Position numbers and translations under genes: made by a program. This document shows positions 1 to 20,013 of a DNA stretch of 64,000 nucleotides, piece by piece; position 1 is the stretch's first letter, and each line of letters starts with the position of its first letter. Source of the stretch: a virus. Its lineage: Duplodnaviria > Heunggongvirae > Uroviricota > Caudoviricetes. Below the pieces are notes generated by a model. It was given only the letters and a program-made list of their open reading frames with translations, ran no database searches and was not told the DNA's origin. The DNA lies in the IMG/VR virus record IMGVR_UViG_3300037424_001372, positions 32,001-96,000 of that record. One strand, 5' to 3'.

Positions 1-445
<445 letters not shown>

Positions 446-515
446 GTTATTAACTTTTAACAAAAGTAATGTTTGATAATTAATTTATCGAGATTTTTAA
501 AAAATTTATAAATTG

Positions 516-587
516 CACGCCTGAGAGGACTCGAACCCCTAACGTCTGGTTTTGGAGACCAGCATTCTACCATTGAATTACAGACGT
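516..587 (-). tRNA. tRNA-Trp(CCA)
   Basis: Cloverleaf; anticodon arm CTGGT-CTCCAAA-ACCAG; T-loop TTCGAGT. Confidence 0.93.
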
Positions 588-592
588 ATATG

Positions 593-667
593 TAGCACAC
601 ATGGGATTCGAACCCATACCTGTATAGTTTTTGAAACTACTCCCTCTACCCGTTGGGGCACTGTGCT
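593..667 (-). tRNA. tRNA-Leu(CAA), short variable region
   Basis: GTAGT-TTCAAAA-ACTAT; T-arm ATGGG-TTCGAAT-CCCAT; A73. Confidence 0.85.
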
Positions 668-670
668 ATA

Positions 671-1456
671 TTAATTATATTTATTATTCCAATTTTCAAT
701 TCTAATTAATAATTCTTCTAAAGTTATTGAACATCTGAAATTTTTACTAATGTTATCATTATGAATCATTAATCTACAATTTGCAGGATGATTAATTATA
801 TCTGAACTAATACCATTTTCAAAACCAAATTTTATTGAAATCATATGGTCACGACTAATACCATTTAAATTATCGCCTCTATTTTTAGCTTTATACTAAC
901 CATATTTTTCAACTAATGTAAAATCGAATTCATTTGGATAATCAGCTAAATTAAATTTACATTCATTATAATATTTCTGATATTCATTAATATTTTTACT
1001 ATCATAAATTCGTTTACAATCTAAAGAACAAAAAACCCGTTTTCGATTCTTATAATTTAATACAGCATTACAATGTTTACAATAATTAGGCGATAAACCA
1101 TATTTGTACATATTTTCTTTAATATTTAACCTTTTTATTATTGCATCATTAATATTTTTTTTAGCTATATCGCTAAAATTTCTTTTACTATTAACTCTAA
1201 TACTATTATTAAATATTGCAGAACATGATTTTGAACAAAATTTTGCATTTTTTTCTGAAGAATAGAAAATATTATTACATTGTGAACAATATTTAGCATT
1301 TTTTTTCTTAAATTCATTATTACATTTTATCGAACAAAAATGTTTTCTTCCTAACTTTTCAGAACGATTATATTCACTCAATGTTTTTTCAAATTCTTTA
1401 TCACAATTTTCACAAGAAATTATAATTAATTTTCTATTATCTTTCCAACTATTCAT
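671..1456 (-). pseudogene. Zn-finger/HNH-like homing endonuclease with in-frame TAG at 896-898
   Basis: CxxC-rich N-terminus; frame continues past EKYG* as YKAKNRGDNLNGISRDHMISIKFGF...HPANCRLM to TAA at 671. Confidence 0.75.
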
Positions 1457-1529
1457 ATTTATAATTTACTATAAATACGTAAATATTTGAAAAATGTGGA
1501 ATACTTCGAATTCGAACTTGTATTATTAG

Positions 1530-1603
1530 TGGAGTCGATGGAGTATGATTCCACAACCTTCTGCTTGCAAAGCAGATGCTCTATCCATTTGAGCTACGAC
1601 CCC
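1530..1603 (-). tRNA. tRNA-Ala(UGC), atypical T-loop
   Basis: GGGGTCG/CGACTCC acceptor with G3:U70; TCTGC-TTTGCAA-GCAGA; T-loop ATCATAC. Confidence 0.85.
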
Positions 1604-1612
1604 ATGTTATTG

Positions 1613-1699
1613 TATCTTAGGTCGGATTCGAACCGACACGGGCATTCCTGCCCAAGGGATTTTAAGTCCCTCATGTGCTACCAATTTCATCACTAAGAC
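1613..1699 (-). tRNA. tRNA-Leu(UAA), long variable arm
   Basis: AGGGA-CTTAAAA-TCCCT; variable arm GGGCA-GGAA-TGCCC. Confidence 0.92.
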
Positions 1700-1705
1700 A
1701 TTTAG

Positions 1706-1780
1706 TACGAGTGGTGGGAGTCGAACCCACAAATTTCAGTTTCTAAGACTGTTGCCTCTTAACCGTTCGGCTACACTCGC
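1706..1780 (-). tRNA. tRNA-Leu(UAG), short variable region
   Basis: CAGT-CTTAGAA-ACTG; T-arm GTGGG-TTCGACT-CCCAC. Confidence 0.88.
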
Positions 1781-2214
1781 ATTTCTTTTTCAAGTATTGA
1801 ATGACAATTAGAACAAACAATAATTAAATTATTAAATTCATTATTAAAATGATTTCCATCAATATGATGTAGTTCGATTGGTATTTCTTGTCCTAACCAA
1901 GTATCATTACCACATTTTTCACATTTATGTTTTTTATAACCATCCCTAATTAATTTTAATTTTAATTTATGTGAACTAACATTACTTCCATTATAACAAT
2001 ATTCAAGAGCATTTTTTTTATTAAATGTTCTACCTTTATTAAAAGCACTACCTACAAAATGTGTAAATGAAATATTAAAATCAATTGCTCTTTTTTTTAT
2101 ATGAGTTTGTGAACCTGTCATTGGTTTAACTCCCAATATTCTACAAACATCAGCCCATGTTGTCGAACATTTAATAGCATTTTCTAATTGCTCATTAGTA
2201 TATTTATTTCTCAT
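1771..2214 (-). CDS. HNH homing endonuclease
   Basis: CEKC...IELHHIDGNHFNNEFNNLIIVCSNCH; likely start MRNKY at 2214; stop overlaps 5' end of tRNA-Leu(UAG). Confidence 0.85.
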   Translation of the reverse strand: MRNKYTNEQLENAIKCSTTWADVCRILGVKPMTGSQTHIKKRAIDFNISFTHFVGSAFNKGRTFNKKNALEYCYNGSNVSSHKLKLKLIRDGYKKHKCEKCGNDTWLGQEIPIELHHIDGNHFNNEFNNLIIVCSNCHSILEKEMRV

Positions 2215-2297
2215 TAGTATATATGTTTTTATATAAATAGTAATGTGTATACTAAAAAGATTAAATTTCAATATAATTACACAATATTATAATTAAG

Positions 2298-2371
2298 TAC
2301 CCCTAATCAGATTCGAACTGATACATTATACGGTCTTAACGTATTGCCTCTGCCAATTGGACTATAGGGGC
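2298..2371 (-). tRNA. tRNA-Leu(AAG), short variable region
   Basis: ATACG-TTAAGAC-CGTAT; acceptor GCCCCTA/TAGGGGT; A73. Confidence 0.85.
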
Positions 2372-2385
2372 GTATTATAAATTAG

Positions 2386-2475
2386 CATGAGCAGGGGGAT
2401 TCGAACCTAATTGCTATAGTCATCCCATTTTTCCTCTCGGACGAGGAACGTCTTACCACGTTAGACGATGCCCAT
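2386..2475 (-). ncRNA. tRNA-like RNA / pseudo-tRNA with 8-nt anticodon loop and T-stem insertion
   Basis: Acceptor ATGGGCA/TGCTCAT; D-arm GTCT..AGAC; TTCCT-CGTCCGAG-AGGAA; GGG[16 nt]GG-TTCGAAT-CCCCC. Confidence 0.6.
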
Positions 2476-2482
2476 ATTTTAG

Positions 2483-2557
2483 TGCTTTCTATTGGAGTCG
2501 AACCAATGACTTCCACATTGTAAGAGCGACACTCTAAACCAACTGAGTTAAGAAAGC
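2483..2557 (-). tRNA. tRNA-Val(UAC)
   Basis: Loop CTTACAA; acceptor GCTTTCT/AGAAAGC; weak anticodon stem. Confidence 0.8.
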
Positions 2558-2566
2558 AAATAATAG

Positions 2567-2639
2567 TACATCTGATAGGACTCGAACCTATGGTGTCTTG
2601 TTTGTAATACAAGTGCTTTTGCCACTAAGCTACAGATGC
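2567..2639 (-). tRNA. tRNA-Val(UAC)
   Basis: CTTGT-ATTACAA-ACAAG. Confidence 0.88.
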
Positions 2640-2642
2640 ATG

Positions 2643-2706
2643 TAGGGTGGTGTAGTAGCGAACATCACCACCCTAGATAGCCGAAGCTATAACGGTCCTA
2701 AACCGT
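2643..2706 (-). ncRNA. Candidate three-hairpin small RNA inside the tRNA operon
   Basis: ACGGT/ACCGT, ATAGC-TTCG-GCTAT and a perfect 10-bp TAGGGTGGTG/CACCACCCTA stem in tandem. Confidence 0.55.
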
Positions 2707-2709
2707 ATG

Positions 2710-2781
2710 TATTCGGACGGGGAATCGAACCCCGATTTTTGGGATGAAAACCCAACTTCCTTGCCGTTAGAAGACCCGAAC
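2710..2781 (-). tRNA. tRNA-Glu(UUC)
   Basis: TTGGG-TTTTCAT-CCCAA. Confidence 0.9.
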
Positions 2782-2784
2782 ATA

Positions 2785-3558
2785 TTATTTTTCATATCTA
2801 AATTTCCAACTTCTAATTGTATTATCACTGACCTTATATTTATAACCAGCACCTCGATATCCCAATTCACTAATATCTTTAATTAATTGCTCATAAGATG
2901 GTTTAATTTGATTTTTTACAAATCTACCTAACTTCCATCCATTATTTAAATATACATTTAAATCAATTTTATTTATTTTTTTATCTAATTCATTTTTAAA
3001 TACCCAACAAGTACCAAATTGTGAATTATTTTCTTTAATTCCTCTACCACGATGAGATATACTCATTTTATTTTTAGATTCATCAGTATGTTTTTTATTG
3101 GTGAATGTATTATATTTTAATACACCATCAATATGCATTTTTTTAAATCTATTACTTGCTCTTTTTTTATGATTTTCAATAAAATTAGGGTCTAACCAAA
3201 GTTTATTTAAAAAATTTGTTGAACCTTCTCTAATTTTTTTAATAGATTCTTCACACAACCCATTAAGACCACCTTCACCACCCAATTTCAAATTCATACA
3301 CATTGGGTCTTTTAATGTATTTTCATTAACCAATTCCTTTTCAGCCTCTTTTAATAATTTTCGTGATTCAAAATATTTAAGAATTTCAAATATGTGATTT
3401 TCTTTACCATATTTATTTATTGAATACCACAATCTTTTTCCACTTCCATAATAACCATCATTAATATTATTAGTACTATGCATGCCATAATAATAACGAT
3501 TATTTATATTATTAGTTATTTTATATAAATAATTAAATTTTCTTTCACTTCTTGCCTT
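2785..3558 (-). CDS. GIY-YIG (Seg-like) homing endonuclease with NUMOD3-like motif; start codon apparently ATG>AAG
   Basis: In-frame upstream extension KARSERKFNYLYKITNNINNRYYYGMHST...GYYGSG carries the GIY-YIG motif before the first ATG (3483). Confidence 0.8.
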   Translation of the reverse strand, partial: KARSERKFNYLYKITNNINNRYYYGMHSTNNINDGYYGSGKRLWYSINKYGKENHIFEILKYFESRKLLKEAEKELVNENTLKDPMCMNLKLGGEGGLNGLCEESIKKIREGSTNFLNKLWLDPNFIENHKKRASNRFKKMHIDGVLKYNTFTNKKHTDESKNKMSISHRGRGIKENNSQFGTCWVFKNELDKKINKIDLNVYLNNGWKLGRFVKNQIKPSYEQLIKDISELGYRGAGYKYKVSDNTIRSWKFRYEK

Positions 3559-3603
3559 CTTAATATTTTTTATAAATACTAAGATGGTACAAAAAGTTCA
3601 AGG

Positions 3604-3678
3604 TAGTGCCAACGGGGTTCGAACCCGCACATGACCAGTTTGAAGGACTGGTGACTTAACCAGTTTGCCAATAGCACC
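3604..3678 (-). tRNA. tRNA-Glu(UUC) with C33
   Basis: CCAGT-CCTTCAA-ACTGG. Confidence 0.82.
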
Positions 3679-3680
3679 AT

Positions 3681-4277
3681 TTATATTGTTTTTAAATTAA
3701 TGAAAAGTTCATAACCTAAAACATTTAAAATTTTAATTAAATTATTAATAGTAACATTTGATTTATTTAATTCAATTGTTTTTATTGTTCGTAAACTAAC
3801 TTCTGAAATATTAGATAGTTGTTGTTGTGTAATATTTAATATTTTACGTCTTCTTTTTATTAAAGAACCAATATCAGATTCATTTCCAAATTTCATTAAT
3901 GAATTATTTAATTGTTCCATTAATATTTTTTCTCTATATTCTATTTGTTGTTTTAATTTTTCATTATAATTATTCAAATTATTATTATATGAATCAGTAA
4001 TTAAGTAATTAAATAAATCATGATTATCATTTAATAATTTTCCAACCCAATATTTTTCTTTATCAACTAATTGTGTCCAATCAGAAACATTTTCTAATAC
4101 AATAACAGTTGGTGTATAATCATTCATTTTAAGTTCATTAATCCAATCATTTACTAATGGATTGTGTGAATGTGTTAAATGTGATTCAGCTCTTTTAACT
4201 CCGTTAATAGATTTACCAACATATTTAAATTCATCTGTTCTAGGGTCTTTTAAACCATAAATAATATTTTCATTCAT
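3681..4277 (-). CDS. GIY-YIG nuclease fused to a C-terminal XRE/HipB-like HTH
   Basis: IIYGLKDPRTDEFKYVGKS...R; IKRRRKILNITQQQLSNISEVSLRTIKTIE. Confidence 0.8.
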   Translation of the reverse strand: MNENIIYGLKDPRTDEFKYVGKSINGVKRAESHLTHSHNPLVNDWINELKMNDYTPTVIVLENVSDWTQLVDKEKYWVGKLLNDNHDLFNYLITDSYNNNLNNYNEKLKQQIEYREKILMEQLNNSLMKFGNESDIGSLIKRRRKILNITQQQLSNISEVSLRTIKTIELNKSNVTINNLIKILNVLGYELFINLKTI

Positions 4278-4312
4278 AAACATTTTTAACATAAATACTA
4301 ATAATGTTTATT

Positions 4313-4454
4313 AAAAGTGCTATATAATATACGATTTTTTTTTTATTTAAATGACGAACTATTATTTTACTGTTAAAACAGTATTTTAATTTTTATTATA
4401 ACTAAATAATATAATATATTGCACTTTTACTTAAAAATTACTGGTTTAGCAGTA
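4313..4454. promoter_or_regulatory. Candidate operator array
   Basis: Imperfect inverted pair AAAAGTGCTATATAAT (4313) / ATAATATATTGCACTTTT (4411); two TACTG-N6-CAGTA palindromes (4368, 4439). Confidence 0.45.
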
Positions 4455-4461
4455 ATTTTAG

Positions 4462-4534
4462 CACTCCCGATGGGACTCGAACCCACATAACCCGCATAGA
4501 CAGTGCGGTCGGCAACCTTTGCCACCACAGGGGT
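4462..4534 (-). tRNA. tRNA-Asp(GUC)
   Basis: CCGCA-CTGTCTA-TGCGG; G73. Confidence 0.82.
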
Positions 4535-4549
4535 GTTTAATAACTAGGG

Positions 4550-4621
4550 CGGTCTATGCGAGACTCGAACTCGCTTCTCATGGCTGACAACCACAAAGGA
4601 TAACCCATACCCTAATAGACC
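4550..4621 (-). tRNA. tRNA-Asp(GUC)
   Basis: GTGG-TTGTCAG-CCAT; acceptor GGTCTAT/ATAGACC; G73. Confidence 0.87.
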
Positions 4622-4629
4622 AATTTTCC

Positions 4630-4645
4630 CAATATGTCAAAGAAC
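4630..4645 (-). promoter_or_regulatory. boxA-like antitermination element
   Basis: GTTCTTTGACATATTG between terminator and first tRNA; resembles rrn boxA. Confidence 0.65.
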
Positions 4646-4656
4646 GTAACTTCTAT

Positions 4657-4699
4657 AAAAAAAAAGAACCCGACTCGTTTTAGTTAGTCGGGTTCTTTT
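4657..4699 (-). terminator. Intrinsic terminator (attenuator) of tRNA operon 1
   Basis: AAAAGAACCCGACT-10 nt loop-AGTCGGGTTC followed by T9. Confidence 0.88.
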
Positions 4700-4720
4700 A
4701 TTATAAAAGAAAGGAGTGTG

Positions 4721-4831
4721 TTATTTCACATTACCCGACAAAGTATAGTAATCCTCGTCTGCCCATAAAAGAGCATCTACCACTAACATGGCTTCAAGGA
4801 CTAATGATAATATGTCTAGTAATTTTTTCAT
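4721..4831 (-). CDS. Leader peptide 1, 36 aa (MKKLLDILSLVLEAMLVVDALLWADEDYYTLSGNVK)
   Basis: ATG..TAA ORF between promoter and terminator; contains GTCGGGT complementary to terminator 5' arm. Confidence 0.8.
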   Translation of the reverse strand: MKKLLDILSLVLEAMLVVDALLWADEDYYTLSGNVK

Positions 4832-4874
4832 CTTGATTTTATTTAAATCTGTTTGTTTCTATCTAAATACGTAG

Positions 4875-4905
4875 CAAAGTTATAAAATGTTACAACAACT
4901 GCAAA
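4875..4905 (-). promoter_or_regulatory. Bacteroidota-type housekeeping promoter
   Basis: TTTG-19 nt-TAACTTTG matches the -33 TTTG / -7 TAnnTTTG consensus. Confidence 0.75.
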
Positions 4906-4912
4906 CTTTTTT

Positions 4913-5335
4913 TCAAATATTTTTATCTTTTTTTATTGTTGGTGTTATAACTATCTGATAATCATTAATTTCATATGTTTTAAATAATGACATAATGTTC
5001 ATAGTTCCGTATGGATTCATTGAATGTACCATGATATTTGTGGGTACGTCTAATTTATTATCCATACAATAATCAATAAGCCATTTAGCACAATGATAAC
5101 CAGTTTTTTCATATGTTTCATCATTGTAATCGAAATTTTGCTTTTTATAATGTATATCAGCAAGGTCATGGTCAAATGAAATAATATTTGGTAAACCTTT
5201 GCTTTGAATAATATTAATGAATGCAAAATAATTTCGTACTATATGCCATTTTTCATCCATATATATTGGAAGATGCATATACTTGAAAGCATCTTTAGGC
5301 ATTCTGTAATCGTCAAGAAATGGATTATAGCTCAT
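4913..5335 (-). CDS. Cyclic-phosphate-processing receiver-like domain protein
   Basis: FLDDYR, ISFDHDL, TGYHCAKWL and VHSMN motifs. Confidence 0.7.
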   Translation of the reverse strand: MSYNPFLDDYRMPKDAFKYMHLPIYMDEKWHIVRNYFAFINIIQSKGLPNIISFDHDLADIHYKKQNFDYNDETYEKTGYHCAKWLIDYCMDNKLDVPTNIMVHSMNPYGTMNIMSLFKTYEINDYQIVITPTIKKDKNI

Positions 5336-5470
5336 TATTATCTTTTTTAATTATTATTTTATCAACATTTCTACGAACTTTAGAAGTATATTTTTTACCT
5401 CTTTTTTTCATATGTGTACACCATTCACCATTAAGGAACGAATTTTCTTTATGTCCAACTCTTAATTTGC

Positions 5471-5704
5471 TTATAACATGATTTTATTATCTCTAGCAAA
5501 AACTTGAATATAATGTTTCAAATTTTTAATCATTTCTTCTTTAGTGAGATTTTCATCAACATCTTTTAATGATGAATAAATTTCTCGAAGAAATTCAATT
5601 AATTCTGTTTGTTTATTATAATTCAATTCAAATTGTAAATCAATTAATTTTGATTTTAAATCTTCATTTTCTTCTTGAAGTTTATCAATTAATTCTTCCG
5701 ACAT
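5471..5704 (-). CDS. Hypothetical coiled-coil protein
   Basis: 77-aa ORF with heptad-like N-terminus. Confidence 0.6.
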   Translation of the reverse strand: MSEELIDKLQEENEDLKSKLIDLQFELNYNKQTELIEFLREIYSSLKDVDENLTKEEMIKNLKHYIQVFARDNKIML

Positions 5705-5799
5705 GATTTATAATTTTTAGATGATACGTTATTTATTGAAAAATGTTTCAATTATTATTGAATTTTTCTATAAATACTTTAATTAAAAGTAATTGAGTG

Positions 5800-5882
5800 T
5801 TGTCCCCACAGGATTCGAACCTGTAAACCCTAATGGGTGTCTGCTTCAAAGACAGATGCAATAACCATTCTGCCAGAGGACA
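5800..5882 (-). tRNA. tRNA-Gln(UUG) with long variable arm
   Basis: TCTGT-CTTTGAA-GCAGA; variable hairpin ACCC-ATTA-GGGT; U1-A72. Confidence 0.85.
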
Positions 5883-5934
5883 ATTTTAAATTTTGCAATT
5901 TTAATTGAAATATAATCATTATCGCAAAATATAG

Positions 5935-6008
5935 CAGTCTCGGTAGGATTCGAACCTACATTCTTCTGATTCAGAGTCAGGGGCGTTAGCCAATTGCGCT
6001 ACGAGACT
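5935..6008 (-). tRNA. tRNA-Gln(CUG)
   Basis: CTGA-CTCTGAA-TCAG. Confidence 0.88.
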
Positions 6009-6013
6009 ATATA

Positions 6014-6132
6014 CCTTTTATGACTAGACTTTTACTAGCAATTGAGTGTATCAGAACACTACCCTCGTCCCACATTGTTTACAGTTCTCTAAGTGAACCA
6101 CGAGTGACTTCTTATATCATCCACATAAAAGG
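6014..6132 (-). ncRNA. Candidate ~120-nt structured RNA inside tRNA operon 2
   Basis: 9-bp closing stem CCTTTTATG/CATAAAAGG with internal stems CTCGT/ACGAG, GTTC/GAAC, AGTGT/ACACT. Confidence 0.5.
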
Positions 6133-6138
6133 ATTTAG

Positions 6139-6214
6139 GGTGAAAGACGGGACTCGAACCCGCAAATTCCTGATTCACAGTCAGGCAAGTCTAACCAATT
6201 CCTTTACAATCACC
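6139..6214 (-). tRNA. tRNA-His(GUG)
   Basis: CCTGA-CTGTGAA-TCAGG; G-1 and C73. Confidence 0.87.
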
Positions 6215-6224
6215 ATTTAAATAG

Positions 6225-6299
6225 TCGGGATGGCAGGATTCGAACCTGCGAGTTCTCTTGCTTCCAATGCAAGCGGGGTGACCTCTCCCCAACATCCCG
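6225..6299 (-). tRNA. tRNA-Pro(UGG)
   Basis: CGGGATG/CATCCCG; CTTGC-ATTGGAA-GCAAG. Confidence 0.9.
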
Positions 6300-6331
6300 A
6301 AATATTGTCCCTAATATACATATTTGAGACA

Positions 6332-6408
6332 TGGGGTGAACGATGGGACTCGAACCCACAACTATCAGAACCACAATCTGACGTTCTACCAATTGAACTA
6401 CGTCCACC
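6332..6408 (-). tRNA. tRNA-His(GUG), CCA encoded
   Basis: TCAGA-TTGTGGT-TCTGA; G-1, C73, CCA. Confidence 0.93.
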
Positions 6409-6426
6409 ATTTGTTATAAAACCAAC

Positions 6427-6439
6427 TTTTCAAAGAACA
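6427..6439 (-). promoter_or_regulatory. boxA-like antitermination element
   Basis: TGTTCTTTGAAAA. Confidence 0.6.
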
Positions 6440-6447
6440 TTATTTTG

Positions 6448-6543
6448 TCAGGAATGTGGGATTCGAACCCACGGATGACAACGCCTTTGTGTCATCGCTG
6501 GTTTCCAAGACCAGCAGCTTAAACATTACTCGACCGCTTCCTG
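6448..6543 (-). tRNA. tRNA-Pro(UGG) with long variable arm
   Basis: CTGGT-CTTGGAA-ACCAG; 7-bp variable stem GATGACA/TGTCATC; C1-G72, A73. Confidence 0.8.
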
Positions 6544-6553
6544 TTATTTGTTG

Positions 6554-6629
6554 TAGGGATGACGAGGCTCGAACTCGCATAATTCCCGCTTCCAATGCGG
6601 GTCGTCTCCCAATTGACTTCACCACTCTA
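6554..6629 (-). tRNA. tRNA-Pro(UGG), imperfect acceptor stem
   Basis: CCCGC-ATTGGAA-GCGGG; T-arm GCGAG-TTCGAGC-CTCGT. Confidence 0.75.
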
Positions 6630-6638
6630 TATTTTTTG

Positions 6639-6709
6639 TTGTCCTCAGAGGATTCGGACCTCTACGCCAACAGTCAAAGTGTTGTGTGCTACCATTACAC
6701 TAGAGGACA
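6639..6709 (-). tRNA. tRNA-Gln(UUG)
   Basis: TGTCCTC/GAGGACA; CAACA-CTTTGAC-TGTTG. Confidence 0.88.
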
Positions 6710-6711
6710 AT

Positions 6712-6743
6712 AAAAAACCCACTCTTTTCAGAATGGGTTTTTT
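6712..6743 (-). terminator. Intrinsic terminator (attenuator) of tRNA operon 2
   Basis: AAAAAACCCATTC-TGAAAA-GAGTGGGTTTTTT ending 2 nt before tRNA-Gln. Confidence 0.85.
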
Positions 6744-6764
6744 ATTGTTTTTCAAGTGAGGTAT

Positions 6765-6893
6765 TTATCCCCAAGATTCTTCATGATTAACAATAGGATT
6801 CCCATTCACCATCCTTTGTGGATGTTGTGGTTGTTGGGGCTGATGCATTACTACTATTTCCATTGTTTCTTTTTTTAAAAATCGTTTCTTCAT
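6765..6893 (-). CDS. Leader peptide 2, 42 aa (MKKRFLKKETMEIVVMHQPQQPQHPQRMVNGNPIVNHEESWG)
   Basis: ATG..TAA ORF between promoter and terminator; GAATGGG complementary to terminator 5' arm. Confidence 0.85.
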   Translation of the reverse strand: MKKRFLKKETMEIVVMHQPQQPQHPQRMVNGNPIVNHEESWG

Positions 6894-6941
6894 TTTTTAA
6901 GTTTTAGATAAATTTATTACCCTTGACTTATAAATACGATG

Positions 6942-6972
6942 CAAATATACTAATTGCTATCATAATAGCAAA
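6942..6972 (-). promoter_or_regulatory. Bacteroidota-type housekeeping promoter
   Basis: TTTG-19 nt-TATATTTG. Confidence 0.75.
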
Positions 6973-7153
6973 TTTTTTTAAAAAATTATTTATTATTTAA
7001 CACATTGTATTTATCTGGCTCAAATGTTTGTCAAAATCAATATTTTATATTCTTCTTACTGGCATGACAATTATATTACATTCAATAACTAAAAATATTT
7101 TGGAATTATTGTAATAAAGAATAAGAAATTACATTTCAAACTTTTATGTTGAT

Positions 7154-7345
7154 TCATGTATTGATTCTACTTTTTAAATCGTTAATATATTCTTCAGCTT
7201 CTCTAGCTAATCTGGCATCAACATTCCATAGTGTTTCTAACCATGCAGGTTCATTATTTTCAACGAATATTTCTTCATTTATTGTCATACTGCCTACTTT
7301 ATGCATCATTTCAAAAAGCATTTTTTTATTATTAATAGATTTCAT
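7154..7345 (-). CDS. Hypothetical protein, possibly truncated
   Basis: N-terminus NKKMLFEMM resembles SKQRLFEVM of ORF 10430. Confidence 0.5.
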   Translation of the reverse strand: MKSINNKKMLFEMMHKVGSMTINEEIFVENNEPAWLETLWNVDARLAREAEEYINDLKSRINT

Positions 7346-7435
7346 ATTTAATAATTAATTTTTCCAATATTATTTTTATATTAAATTTTGTATTACATTC
7401 TCTATAATTGTTTGGACTTTATTTCTCTACTCGTT

Positions 7436-8023
7436 TTAGCAATATGAAATATTACGAATATTATCTTTCATTTCACTTGTTCTAATTGGAAGGCTTTCAG
7501 ATTCAATATAATTTTGAATAAAATGACGAATGAGCAATGTTTGAATTCTTGATGGAGCATTATCAAATGCAATAAATTTAATTTCATCACCTTCCATGTT
7601 CCACATACTTACAAAAATATCATTCCATTCAAACGAATCGAACCATTTATCTGTTTGAGGTTCATTGTGATAATTACCAACATCTTCTTTACCATCAACA
7701 TTAGCATATATATTATCGCCTTTAAAAAGTATGTTAAATTTTACAGGTTCTTTTGTCGAATCATATAAATAAGCAATATCGATGGCATATTCTAAAGATA
7801 TATTATTGTTATCACCAATTTCCCAATTACCTGAAACATATGATTCTGTTTTTTTTAGAACTTTAACATTATTTTTATTCAAAAGTGAATCACAAATAAA
7901 TTGTTTTTGCAAATCTTCATTTAACAACAATTCATTAGCTTCTTGTTCTTTAAGAAATCTATCGTTACTAAGAAAATCAAATTTAGATACTTCTTCTTTA
8001 ACTATTTTAAGTATGTTTATCAT
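7436..8023 (-). CDS. Hypothetical protein
   Basis: 195-aa ORF with upstream GTATTTAT motif. Confidence 0.7.
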   Translation of the reverse strand: MINILKIVKEEVSKFDFLSNDRFLKEQEANELLLNEDLQKQFICDSLLNKNNVKVLKKTESYVSGNWEIGDNNNISLEYAIDIAYLYDSTKEPVKFNILFKGDNIYANVDGKEDVGNYHNEPQTDKWFDSFEWNDIFVSMWNMEGDEIKFIAFDNAPSRIQTLLIRHFIQNYIESESLPIRTSEMKDNIRNISYC

Positions 8024-8085
8024 AAATTTAAATAAGAATTTCGATCATAAATACTATTAAAAAAGTATTGTAAATAATAATATAA

Positions 8086-8289
8086 TCACCATTTACCTAA
8101 ATAACATACAGATTTAAGACTTCTTACTTTTGCGGGCATAAAGCATCCACACAATGCACATGTATTAGTCTTAGTTAATTTAGGACACTCGACACATATT
8201 GTAATACGTTTTTTTGCAGTTTCCTCTACTTCAGGACTTGGAAATGTGTAATTTTTCCAACCATTATATATTTCATTTAATTTGCTCAT
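8086..8289 (-). CDS. Small Cys-rich Zn-binding protein
   Basis: CVECP...CALCGC...CYLGKW. Confidence 0.7.
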   Translation of the reverse strand: MSKLNEIYNGWKNYTFPSPEVEETAKKRITICVECPKLTKTNTCALCGCFMPAKVRSLKSVCYLGKW

Positions 8290-8476
8290 ATATTTTTAAA
8301 CTTTTTACTTAAGATCGTAAGTCGTCAATTTGTTGACCTGAATCATTAAGAATTAATTTTTGTTGTTCATCATACGGATAATTTTTAATAAAATCAACAT
8401 TAACAGGAAAAAAACTTCCATTTAATATGATTATTATTAGCATTATCGTCATTTTTTTTCAAAAATATTATTCATG

Positions 8477-10357
8477 TTATCTATAAATTATTCTTCCTCC
8501 TTTAGAAACCTTAATATTCTTATTAAGATCATTCCTACTTTCAATAATTGCATTATGCAATATTTCTGATGAATTTAATGCTTTATCATATAGTCTAAGT
8601 TTTTGAATTCCTCCAATAAAATTAGAATCAAAATTTTGTTCAATCAATAAACCAGATTTACTTTCGTCCCGAACTAAAATATCTGATGCAACATATTCAA
8701 AATCTTTAACATAAATAGTACCTCCACTAATAAGTTCATCATCAGTTTCAATCAATAATCCCAAAAATACGTAATTTTGACCAGAATTATCAGGCGTTCT
8801 AAATATATTATTTAATGTAATCCAATTTTGTTCACCAGTCAATATTGAACCAGTTAACAGATAATTATATTCAATATCGTTAACTATGTTAATATCAACA
8901 TCGTCCGAATAAACAATAAGACAGATTTCATTATTTGTTTCAGAATTAAATAAACCATCCACATATATTGAAGTACTGCCAGTATAATCTCTATTACTTA
9001 TCACTGAAATTGGTTGATTAAATTTAATAAAAAATGAATTTCCTGTTGTTCCAGTATATTCAATACTCATAACAGTTAAAGGTATTTCAACATCAGGATT
9101 ACAATTATTATTAGTATGAAATTTAGTATCATTAACACTTAATAACAAACCATCAATAGTAGTATCACCAGTTAATGGTATGTAACAATCTGTTGGAATT
9201 GGATTAACATTGACAGAAAAATAATTGTTAACATATAAATCATCTTGACCATTATAAATAACATATGTTTGATAATCATAGTGATAAGAATGTTTTAAAC
9301 CAAAACTACCACCGCCCCAGCTAATTGAAAACGGTTCACCGATTTGTTTTTCTCTATCATTATTAAATAATTTAAAATAAAATTCTGGAAATTCTTTTAC
9401 CATCCAAACTGCTCTACCATTAACATAGAATATTAATTTACCTGTTCTACGTTCAGCACATTCTAATAATGATTTATCTGATATAATTTCATCAGGGGTA
9501 TATGTAATATTGATGAGAGTCCAACCAGTTAAAGGTATTACATTTATTGATGAACAATTGGTTATTATAATGCCGTTATCATCGATATATTTATAACCAA
9601 TTTTTTTATCTTCAGTAATTTCAAAAGCAATTACATTATTTTTTATATTGGTAATTGGTGTTGCTTCTTTATATTGAGTTTTATACATGTTTGATTCAGG
9701 AGAACTAAATCCTAAATTTAATGATTCATAAGCCTCTAAAGCATTTAAATAATTATTTTCGCTAGTGTCAACACCACCAGAAATTTCATTATTGATAATA
9801 AATGTTTCACCACTAAAATATGTATTATACTTATCTTCAGAACGAGCACCCATCATATAAAATATACCTTGTGATTCAGGAACTAAGTTTATAAGAGTTT
9901 CGATAGTAATACCATTATTATATCTCGAAGGAAATAATTCATAATCATATTTATCGAGTTTAAAAAATCCTTGTAAATATCCACCATTTAAATCAAAATA
10001 ATTACCAGTATTACCCGTAGTTACAGCAGACATTGATAAATATTCTGTAGTGGCAGTTACGCCACTATAATCATAAATTGTTGGGTTAATAACATTATTA
10101 TATCCAATTCGATACATTGAAAATAAATTATCTTTTGGGGTCAATGTAATTCCACTCCACATAATATTAGTCCTACCATTATCAAATTCAGTTAAACCAA
10201 AATCATGTAAATTAATATTGTCTGTAATAGCTCCCGACCATTTAGTTAAACTTAACGCTGTTAAACCAGTATTTAAATCCCATGATTTTAAATTTGTTAG
10301 GTCGATCTGTATTGCTAAATTTTGTGTGATAATATCATTTAAACATTCTAAACTCAT
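8477..10357 (-). CDS. Probable virion structural protein with LamG/ConA-like beta domain
   Basis: WTLINITY, LIFYVNG, FIGGIQKLRLYDKALNSSEI; T/G-rich. Confidence 0.6.
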   Translation of the reverse strand: MSLECLNDIITQNLAIQIDLTNLKSWDLNTGLTALSLTKWSGAITDNINLHDFGLTEFDNGRTNIMWSGITLTPKDNLFSMYRIGYNNVINPTIYDYSGVTATTEYLSMSAVTTGNTGNYFDLNGGYLQGFFKLDKYDYELFPSRYNNGITIETLINLVPESQGIFYMMGARSEDKYNTYFSGETFIINNEISGGVDTSENNYLNALEAYESLNLGFSSPESNMYKTQYKEATPITNIKNNVIAFEITEDKKIGYKYIDDNGIIITNCSSINVIPLTGWTLINITYTPDEIISDKSLLECAERRTGKLIFYVNGRAVWMVKEFPEFYFKLFNNDREKQIGEPFSISWGGGSFGLKHSYHYDYQTYVIYNGQDDLYVNNYFSVNVNPIPTDCYIPLTGDTTIDGLLLSVNDTKFHTNNNCNPDVEIPLTVMSIEYTGTTGNSFFIKFNQPISVISNRDYTGSTSIYVDGLFNSETNNEICLIVYSDDVDINIVNDIEYNYLLTGSILTGEQNWITLNNIFRTPDNSGQNYVFLGLLIETDDELISGGTIYVKDFEYVASDILVRDESKSGLLIEQNFDSNFIGGIQKLRLYDKALNSSEILHNAIIESRNDLNKNIKVSKGGRIIYR

Positions 10358-19035: not shown

Positions 19036-20013
19036 TGTTCTTTTCTTGGTTCTGGTGATAACTTTATTGCTGAAGAATATCTTAAACGTATTCAAGAACA
19101 TGAAGTTAGACCACCAATTCGTCAAGAATATCTCGATGGTAACATGTGGATATTTGAAGACTCTATTATTGGCGAAACATACATTATGGCGTTGGATGCA
19201 TCCCCGGGTCATGGTGAAGATAATTCAACGATTAATATTTTAAAAACGTGTGAAATTATTGAAGAAAAGATCGTTACAAAAAATGGTAAAACTAAAAAAA
19301 TAAAAATCAAACGTCATAAAGTTGAGCAAGTTGCAGAATATTATGGTAAAATAAGTCCACAAATATTAGCCGAAATAGCATATCAATATGGTAAACGTTA
19401 TAATGATGCTTATTGTGTCGTTGATGTAACCGGTGGTCATGGTGTTCACACTGTTGAAAAAATGTTAGAAATTGGGTATGAAAATATTCACTATGCCGAA
19501 GTAATTCATAAACCAACCAGAGATAGATTACAAGGTTACATAAAAAAAGGTCAAAAAGTCATGTCTGATGGAGCTATTTCAAACGTAGATTTAATTCCCG
19601 GATTCTTCATTGGTAATAATAGACCTTCGGTACTTCTTGAAATGCAAAGAGCTATTCATTTGGAAGATATTGTTATTAGGTCTAATAGATTATTAAGCGA
19701 ATTAAAGACATTTGTAACTGTCCCCGGAAACAGAGTGGCAGATCATAAGCGTACTTTTCATGATGACAGTATTATGGGACTTTCGATAGGTTTATTCGTA
19801 TTAAATTTTGACATGGCCAGATTTAAACAAAGTAAAGGTGTTGCTGAAAAAATGATTAATGCAATTATTACTAATAACGATATTTCTACCATGAAAATAA
19901 ATAAAGAAATGAAAAATAAACCAACTATTTCACCAAACAGTTCATCACCTTTAAATCCTTATGGAGTTAACTCATGGTTATTTCAAGGAATGAAAAATCT
20001 AAATGAAAGATGA
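18712..20013 (+). CDS. terL: Terminase large subunit, C-terminal nuclease part, preceded by IntC
   Basis: CSFLGSG, MALDASPG, HDDSIM RNase H-like acidic motifs. Confidence 0.9.
   Translation: MYINTEYEILNSSGNFVDFAGISMSENNVGYKITLENGDTITVSENHIFIAGNINVFVKSIIPNVSYLTTIDGDFFVTNVTKIDNCDFYDIVDSENAEYFANNILNHNCSFLGSGDNFIAEEYLKRIQEHEVRPPIRQEYLDGNMWIFEDSIIGETYIMALDASPGHGEDNSTINILKTCEIIEEKIVTKNGKTKKIKIKRHKVEQVAEYYGKISPQILAEIAYQYGKRYNDAYCVVDVTGGHGVHTVEKMLEIGYENIHYAEVIHKPTRDRLQGYIKKGQKVMSDGAISNVDLIPGFFIGNNRPSVLLEMQRAIHLEDIVIRSNRLLSELKTFVTVPGNRVADHKRTFHDDSIMGLSIGLFVLNFDMARFKQSKGVAEKMINAIITNNDISTMKINKEMKNKPTISPNSSSPLNPYGVNSWLFQGMKNLNER

Follow-up and report, generated by a model that had tools for sequence, protein, structure and literature searches.

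A phage tRNA operon with a putative leader-peptide attenuator that would sense the supply of its own tRNAs

The DNA considered here (the window) comprises 64,000 nucleotides (nt), bases 32001-96000 of the 324,744-bp virus record IMGVR_UViG_3300037424_001372, with a G+C content of 27.6%. On its minus strand lies a transfer RNA (tRNA) operon, denoted operon 2, in which a promoter-like element is followed by a short leader open reading frame (ORF), an intrinsic terminator, and eight tRNA genes. An earlier note on this DNA had described the leader, the terminator arms, and the tRNAs and read them as an attenuation system; all of them are present at the positions it gave. Genes of the window include those for a major capsid protein of the gp23 type and a prohead protease of the T4 type. 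Among cultured phages, the capsid protein is closest to those of Flavobacterium phage immuto (38% identity) and Microcystis phage Mel-JY01 (36% identity), and a host among the Bacteroidota is plausible. Of the sequencing runs listed as containing this DNA, none is an RNA run, and a sediment metagenome, which may be its source, is the single one that contains it in full. The phage carries at least 34 tRNA genes, most of them within one minus-strand region (genome positions 15.4-38.7 kb).

All operon-2 features described below are encoded on the minus strand. The operon opens with an exact match to the motif TTTG-N19-TATATTTG (6972-6942), which we take to represent the -33/-7 boxes of a Bacteroidota-type promoter and which would place the transcription start near 6935. 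The more general form TTTG-N18-20-TAnnTTTG occurs four times in the window at an expectation of 3.6, and a window-wide enrichment is not found. The case for a promoter consists solely in the location of such motifs before two leaders (another match precedes the leader of operon 1, described below) and in their conservation, as a TTTG-N19-TAnnTTTG-like motif, mostly with a 19-nt spacer, ends 24-43 nt 5' of the ATG in 53 of 66 relatives. The leader ORF (6893-6765; 42 codons and TAA; product MKKRFLKKETMEIVVMHQPQQPQHPQRMVNGNPIVNHEESWG) contains three in-frame ATGs at 6893, 6863, and 6848, the second of which aligns with the start codon of the relatives. At 6845-6816 it harbors the ten consecutive His, Gln, and Pro codons CAT CAG CCC CAA CAA CCA CAA CAT CCA CAA (HQPQQPQHPQ) that had been highlighted before. 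This run, which also serves as region 1 of the structures discussed below, is the longest of its kind in the six frames of the whole genome; the next longest has a length of 7, and approximately 1e-5 runs of ten such codons are expected there by chance. For the leader peptides, searches of Pfam and PHROG gave no family.

Between the leader ORF and the tRNA genes, an intrinsic terminator (CCCATTCT, GAAA, AGAGTGGG, and six T residues; 6737-6712) is formed by the 5' arm CCCATTC(T) (6737-6730), the GAAA loop (6729-6726), the 3' arm (A)GAGTGGG (6725-6718), and the T6 tract (6717-6712). The built-in terminator scan did not list it; it was detected by our own hairpin and T-run scans and by folding. 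Only two strong hairpin-plus-T-run sites are located on the minus strand from 7000 to 4600, namely this terminator and the attenuator terminator of operon 1, each between a leader ORF and the first tRNA gene, a position in which an ordinary end-of-gene terminator would be counterproductive. The 8-bp terminator stem includes one G.U pair between its 5' arm (region 3, 6737-6731) and its 3' arm (region 4, 6724-6718), whereas region 3 is perfectly complementary to GAATGGG (region 2, 6807-6801), situated 8 nt past the codon run. This competition for CCCATTC, proposed in the earlier note, is supported by folding, and a second 7-bp antiterminator helix between TATTGTT (6795-6789) and AACAATA (6749-6743) can be added to it. 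In the predicted fold of the whole leader, the terminator forms together with a hairpin that joins the C-rich run to the G-rich segment AGGAUGGUGAAUGGG; in the minimum-energy fold lacking the terminator 3' arm, GAAUGGG-CCCAUUC and UAUUGUU-AACAAUA are paired. Predicted energies in the window amount to -14.6 kcal/mol for the terminator, -18.2 kcal/mol for the antiterminator, and -11.9 kcal/mol for the 1:2 hairpin. The respective means of the 34 sequences folded are -15.5, -17.6, and -12.1 kcal/mol, so that the antiterminator is on average predicted to be the more stable of the two competing structures. The 2:3 helix is part of the minimum-energy fold in 34/34 sequences when region 4 is absent, and for the window as well as for each of the 33 folded relatives, 1:2, 2:3, and 3:4 structures that exclude one another are predicted.

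The terminator is followed by genes for tRNA-Gln(UUG) (6709-6638), tRNA-Pro(UGG) (6626-6554), a second tRNA-Pro(UGG) of 93 nt (6541-6449), tRNA-His(GUG) (6407-6332), tRNA-Pro(UGG) (6299-6224), tRNA-His(GUG) (6213-6138), tRNA-Gln(CUG) (6008-5934), and a tRNA-Gln(UUG) of 84 nt (5882-5799), i.e. three Gln, three Pro, and two His tRNAs, in agreement with the original description. The second gene was missed by ARAGORN at default settings but is found by Rfam (loop AUUGGAA) and by relaxed ARAGORN. For the last one, the ARAGORN call Phe(GAA) was rejected, since the Rfam tRNA alignment displays the anticodon loop CUUUGAA and thus UUG, i.e. Gln. The T-tract and the first tRNA-Gln are separated by just 2 nt, which leaves no room for a separate promoter and implies that the tRNAs are made only by read-through of the terminator; the first tRNA begins 6-56 nt past the T-run in 41 of 65 relatives. 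As a rule, only Leu, Ser, and Tyr tRNAs have long variable arms. Each array, also in the relatives, nevertheless contains additional copies of tRNA-Pro(UGG) (93 nt) and tRNA-Gln(UUG) (84 nt, with a 13-nt variable-arm insert) bearing such arms, and long forms of Trp, Glu, Thr, Met, Gly, and Ile tRNAs occur in the phage and its relatives as well.

Taken together, operon 2 is best interpreted as a ribosome-mediated, leader-peptide transcription attenuator gating a phage tRNA operon in response to the supply of its own tRNAs, a reading to which we assign a probability of roughly 0.78 and with which each of the computational tests made agrees. Transcription from the promoter-like site near 6972-6942 would yield a leader RNA with ten consecutive His, Gln, and Pro codons. 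During fast decoding, the ribosome would pass over GAAUGGG, allowing the terminator to form and transcription to stop 2 nt before tRNA-Gln. Should the supply of charged Gln, Pro, or His tRNA run short, the ribosome would stall within the run, GAAUGGG and UAUUGUU would pair with CCCAUUC and AACAAUA, and the resulting antiterminator would block the terminator and let RNA polymerase enter the eight tRNA genes. The geometry invoked in the earlier note allows this. If a ribosome is taken to shield some 12 nt past the first base of the codon in the aminoacyl (A) site, GAATGGG is calculated to stay uncovered while any of run codons 1-9 occupies the A site; with codon 10 in that site, two bases of GAATGGG lie under the ribosome. 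If the leader is not translated, the C-rich run is expected to pair with region 2, again resulting in termination. The phage would thereby supplement Gln, Pro, and His tRNAs on demand, and since the product relieves the stall, the circuit would act on their level as a homeostat. It might be triggered by codon demand, by a phage-induced loss of host tRNAs, or by host defences that cut tRNAs.

Conservation was assessed in 66 distinct related leader-terminator sequences, 67 with the window. The first loci were fetched via two neighbouring proteins and are therefore unbiased with respect to the leader; the remaining ones were obtained by a pattern search that required a start codon and P-Q-Q-H-P, leaving regions 2-4, the arrays, and all other codons free to vary. 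Every protein-fetched locus reaching the region has a promoter-like box, a leader, a terminator, and a Pro/His/Gln array, with leaders resembling MKNLVNIQPQPQQHPQ..EWG.Y*, with GAATGGGG, and terminators of the form CCCCATTC-GNRA-GAGTGGGG-T7. A region of Cellulophaga phage phi4:1 was not informative. Across the 67 sequences, the 2:3 helix and the terminator stem are each paired to 98.7%. Region 2 reads GAATGGG(G) in 64 of the 66 relatives and GAACGGGG, with compensating partners, in the other two (L014 and L113), where a U-A pair of the 2:3 helix is replaced by C-G and region 4 has changed too, so that all three partners are affected. L113 and its near twin L112 differ by exactly these changes, which turn a Trp codon into an Arg codon while the pairing is kept. 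The terminator stem shows double changes at three pairs, and a G.U pair in the terminator where the antiterminator has A-U is observed in 53/67 sequences. In the window, L056, L028/L116, and L136, the bases of GAATGGG(G) are retained although they are read in another frame or contain a stop codon, which indicates that region 2 is constrained as RNA and not as peptide.

The codon run itself behaves differently. Because a first count of synonymous and nonsynonymous differences was biased by the search pattern, it was repeated on the protein-fetched loci and on columns outside the pattern. In the former, unbiased set, 59% of the pairwise run codon differences are synonymous in the leader frame as compared with 11% and 6% in the other frames; in the columns outside the pattern, the values are 34% as compared with 8% and 4%. 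The run is thus constrained as codons. This bears on the idea of an RNA-only switch, i.e. a riboswitch, a T-box-like element, or a protein-bound RNA that uses the same hairpins while the ORF is left untranslated. The three alternative helices can indeed be drawn without a ribosome. The leader ATG is kept and the frame is open in 67/67 sequences, though, and the strong synonymous bias is confined to one frame. Moreover, no Rfam leader family matches at its gathering threshold (the best, Thr_leader, scores 29.9 bits against a cut-off of 55, and in the terminator region only), and no T-box match is obtained in window positions 1-9000 at E values up to 1. An RNA-only switch is hence regarded as extremely improbable.

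A different proposal is that the ORF encodes a small Gln/Pro-rich protein ending in an ordinary terminator, with the tRNAs expressed via unregulated leak-through or another promoter and the amino acid match being coincidental. Small proline- and glutamine-rich peptides do exist, and in some relatives a 42-codon basic ORF or an endonuclease gene lies between the terminator and the first tRNA. On the other hand, the spacing of 2 nt between T-tract and tRNA-Gln, the missing protein family match, and the C-terminal part of the peptide, which is read in differing frames over a conserved RNA, all speak against such a protein. The chance of an exact match of three amino acids is about 1 in 1140, and a match is repeated at two more operons. 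This explanation is accordingly rated as very unlikely.

The correspondence between leader and array extends to the relatives. Pro, His, and Gln tRNAs are found in 33/33 arrays with at least 2.2 kb of downstream sequence, and behind 65 leaders, 327 of approximately 345 tRNA calls are of these three types. Most of the other calls belong to an adjoining Asp/Glu/Val/Leu operon in L084 or are undetermined or doubtful low-threshold calls, some of which are probably offset readings of the long-arm tRNA-Gln. The sole other type within the arrays is tRNA-Arg(ACG), encoded in three of them (L090, L098, and L135, which shares its contig with L059). Arg codons are present in the run of precisely these three leaders and of no others: CGA CCT CGA in L090 and CGC in both L098 and L135. 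CGA and CGC belong to the CGN box and are read by the ACG anticodon; in the genes of the phage, AGA and AGG together make up 67% of the Arg codons. As the two tRNA-Arg genes differ in sequence, two lineages are involved. A candidate case of the reverse kind, loss of both the His codon of the run and tRNA-His in L010, was rejected, as relaxed ARAGORN finds a tRNA-His there.

Two more tRNA operons of the same phage are organized in a parallel manner. Operon 1 (minus strand) comprises the promoter-like element TTTG-N19-TAACTTTG (4905-4875), a leader (4831-4721; MKKLLDILSLVLEAMLVVDALLWADEDYYTLSGNVK, beginning MKKLLDILSLVLEAMLVVDALLWADEDYY), a GTCGGGT segment that pairs with the terminator arm ACCCGAC, a T9 terminator near 4665, and tRNA genes for Asp (two), Glu (two), Val (two), Leu (four), Ala, and Trp (4622-515). 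Its leader is kept in seven relatives as MKNLLDIL..LVA.LLW.DAEE..VG. Operon 3 is located outside the window (L144; genome 19950-19640, minus strand, beginning at 19836) and combines TTTG-N19-TATCTTTG, the leader MKTLFTNIISSITTTISRNGNSIFCSFNSSDRSDNGFLFSDTEV, which is rich in Thr, Ile, Ser, Asn, Cys, and Gly, and the terminator AAAACCCGATTCGAAAGATTCGGGTTTTTT with tRNAs for Thr, Cys, Asn, Pro, Met, Ile, Ser (two), Gly, Met, and Asn. When the three leaders are compared with the three operons, the amino acid enrichment is confined to the diagonal (P = 2e-5, 3e-5, and 1e-4); all off-diagonal comparisons give P values of 0.8 or more.

These parallels help to judge two further explanations. According to the first, QPQPQQHPQ would act like SecM or TnaC as a nascent-peptide arrest sequence, at which a ligand or factor stalls the ribosome independently of tRNA supply. 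Proline-containing nascent chains can slow peptide-bond formation. The run contains no consecutive prolines, though; its length and order vary among relatives through 6-nt deletions and changes of Q to V, N, or R, and the leaders of operons 1 and 3 are unrelated in sequence, yet each matches its own tRNAs. An arrest peptide is thus highly improbable. The second explanation accepts a real translation-dependent attenuator but supposes that it gauges general translation speed, transcription-translation coupling, or amino acid starvation, the codons being selected for RNA pairing. CCC and CCG are rare in the phage genes (8% and 7% of Pro codons) and supply, where they occur in the run, the C residues pairing with the GGGG of region 2; besides, a leader of this type cannot separate lack of a tRNA from lack of the amino acid. 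Against this speak the three leaders of one phage that each match only their own array, the Arg CGN codons that are found in the run only where tRNA-Arg(ACG) has joined the array, and the synonymous drift among CCN and CAR codons, by which amino acid and anticodon identity are kept and not the bases. A general gauge is therefore considered unlikely.

Several observations nevertheless weigh against a gauge of the operon's own tRNAs and are gathered here. The window leader is atypical when compared with its relatives: an additional ATG lies upstream, and its stop codon has been moved by a one-base shift to 33 nt beyond region 2, unlike in most of them; termination under fast translation would here depend on timing and not on a parked ribosome. 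The last one or two run codons are too near to region 2 to free it. The compensatory changes in the antiterminator concern two sequences and one base pair in an otherwise invariant helix, so that covariation is thin, and the 1:2 helix lacks covariation support and is weak in some relatives (-6.5 kcal/mol in L014). Conservation of the run in the larger set is partly due to construction, since the pattern required P-Q-Q-H-P. Finally, amino acid starvation would open the switch too, though extra tRNA is of no help in this case.

With regard to mechanism, operon 2 resembles the leaders of the enterobacterial his operon (hisL), trpL, and pheL (PMC3082878), which likewise consist of a short translated ORF with a run of regulatory codons, alternative 1:2, 2:3, and 3:4 hairpins (here predicted), and a U-tailed terminator, and in which shortage of a charged tRNA causes the stall. 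Operon 2 shares with the trpL/hisL class a predicted translated ORF with clustered codons, the intrinsic terminator, and an antiterminator that uses the terminator 5' arm. Whereas the classical leaders control cellular genes for amino acid biosynthesis, the genes controlled here would be eight phage tRNA genes, neither biosynthetic nor synthetase genes, so that what is sensed and what is produced would be molecules of one kind; at the level of sequence or Rfam family, no relationship exists. Multivalent attenuators are known as well: the ilvGMEDA leader samples Leu, Val, and Ile, and the thr leader Thr and Ile. In these systems, too, several amino acids are sampled and a stall at any of them opens the operon, but their amino acid set reflects a shared biosynthetic pathway, while that of operon 2 corresponds to the list of downstream tRNA genes and is updated with this list, as illustrated by Arg. 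Genes of the translation apparatus are controlled by tRNA charging in the pheST attenuator (pheM leader) and by T-box riboswitches, both of which likewise make the expression of a decoding component dependent on the state of the cognate tRNA. The pheM leader, however, controls an aminoacyl-tRNA synthetase and not tRNA genes, and T-boxes bind uncharged tRNA directly, without a ribosome. In the literature searched, no description of leader-peptide control of tRNA genes was encountered. The mechanism class is a classical one; tRNA genes under such control, a phage as carrier, and a product that is itself the sensed molecule, with a codon checklist that is updated, were not encountered in the papers searched. 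Flavobacterium phage immuto has four tRNAs only and no leader or terminator of the operon-2 kind, and a search of GenBank phages with the operon-2 region returned tRNA-to-tRNA matches only.

Some further features of these tRNA regions deserve mention. Between the terminator and the first tRNA-Pro, L004 (~9290-9420, minus strand), L005, and L012 contain a conserved 42-codon Lys-rich ORF (MAKEKSK.KKLKKLNDQLKSHSQNP.MV.NL..RI.TVESGK), which by this position would be under the same switch, and in L015 an HNH-like endonuclease ORF lies between the attenuator terminator and the first tRNA. The motif GTTCTTTGA(C/A)AT.TTGGAA is found directly 5' of some tRNAs (window 4645-4623 and 6438-6430, minus strand) and after the operon-2 terminator in many relatives. 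Its interpretation as a phage promoter between terminator and tRNAs was rejected, for GTTCTTTGA is seldom found in the genome and does not occur between the terminator and tRNA-Gln of the window; the complete motif may be a signal for processing. A gene at 4913-5335 (minus strand), situated between the two tRNA operons of the window, specifies a 140-aa protein in which Pfam recognizes a cREC_REC domain (cyclic-phosphate processing receiver domain) at E = 2.5e-19. As no terminator was detected between this gene and the Gln/Pro/His array, it may be co-transcribed with the array, and its domain may, going by the Pfam name only, be related to RNA end processing. The ORFs dispersed among the operon-1 tRNAs (896-4292, minus strand), i.e. 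a 203-aa HTH_3 protein, a 232-aa protein with a borderline NUMOD3 match, and two Cys/His-rich proteins of 166 and 186 aa, look like homing-endonuclease-type insertions. Outside the window, a tRNA-Tyr gene (L143; genome 28440-28057, minus strand) is preceded by TATATTTG, about 330 nt devoid of an ORF but with several stable hairpins (z = -3.3), and, immediately 5' of the tRNA, a hairpin resembling a terminator. A T-box in this stretch is unsupported, as it has no match in Rfam, T-box families included; it may represent an RNA-only control element.

The purpose of tRNA genes in phages is a matter of long-standing debate. Recent studies tie phage tRNAs to the escape from host defences that cut tRNAs (PMC10264068, PMC11555353, PMC11464382). 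Regulation of these genes is not mentioned in the first of these studies (PMC10264068) and is hardly addressed in recent work. We lean, with some reserve, towards the view that large phages carry programmable gauges of tRNA supply, in which the leader represents a codon checklist, the tRNA block is transcribed only upon slow decoding (e.g. after the action of tRNA-cleaving host defences or phage-induced loss of host tRNAs), and the checklist is rewritten upon gain of a tRNA, as with the Arg CGN codons and tRNA-Arg(ACG). With a length of about 230 nt, such a leader is modular and portable and could be employed to report the availability of specific tRNAs. If this view is correct, the logic of classical amino acid operon attenuation would have been re-used with the sensed molecule as the product. 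Phage tRNA arrays would then be an inducible, self-limiting replacement system and not constitutive helpers for codon usage, and the phage would gauge the decoding capacity of the infected cell for each codon set and answer with the matching tRNAs.

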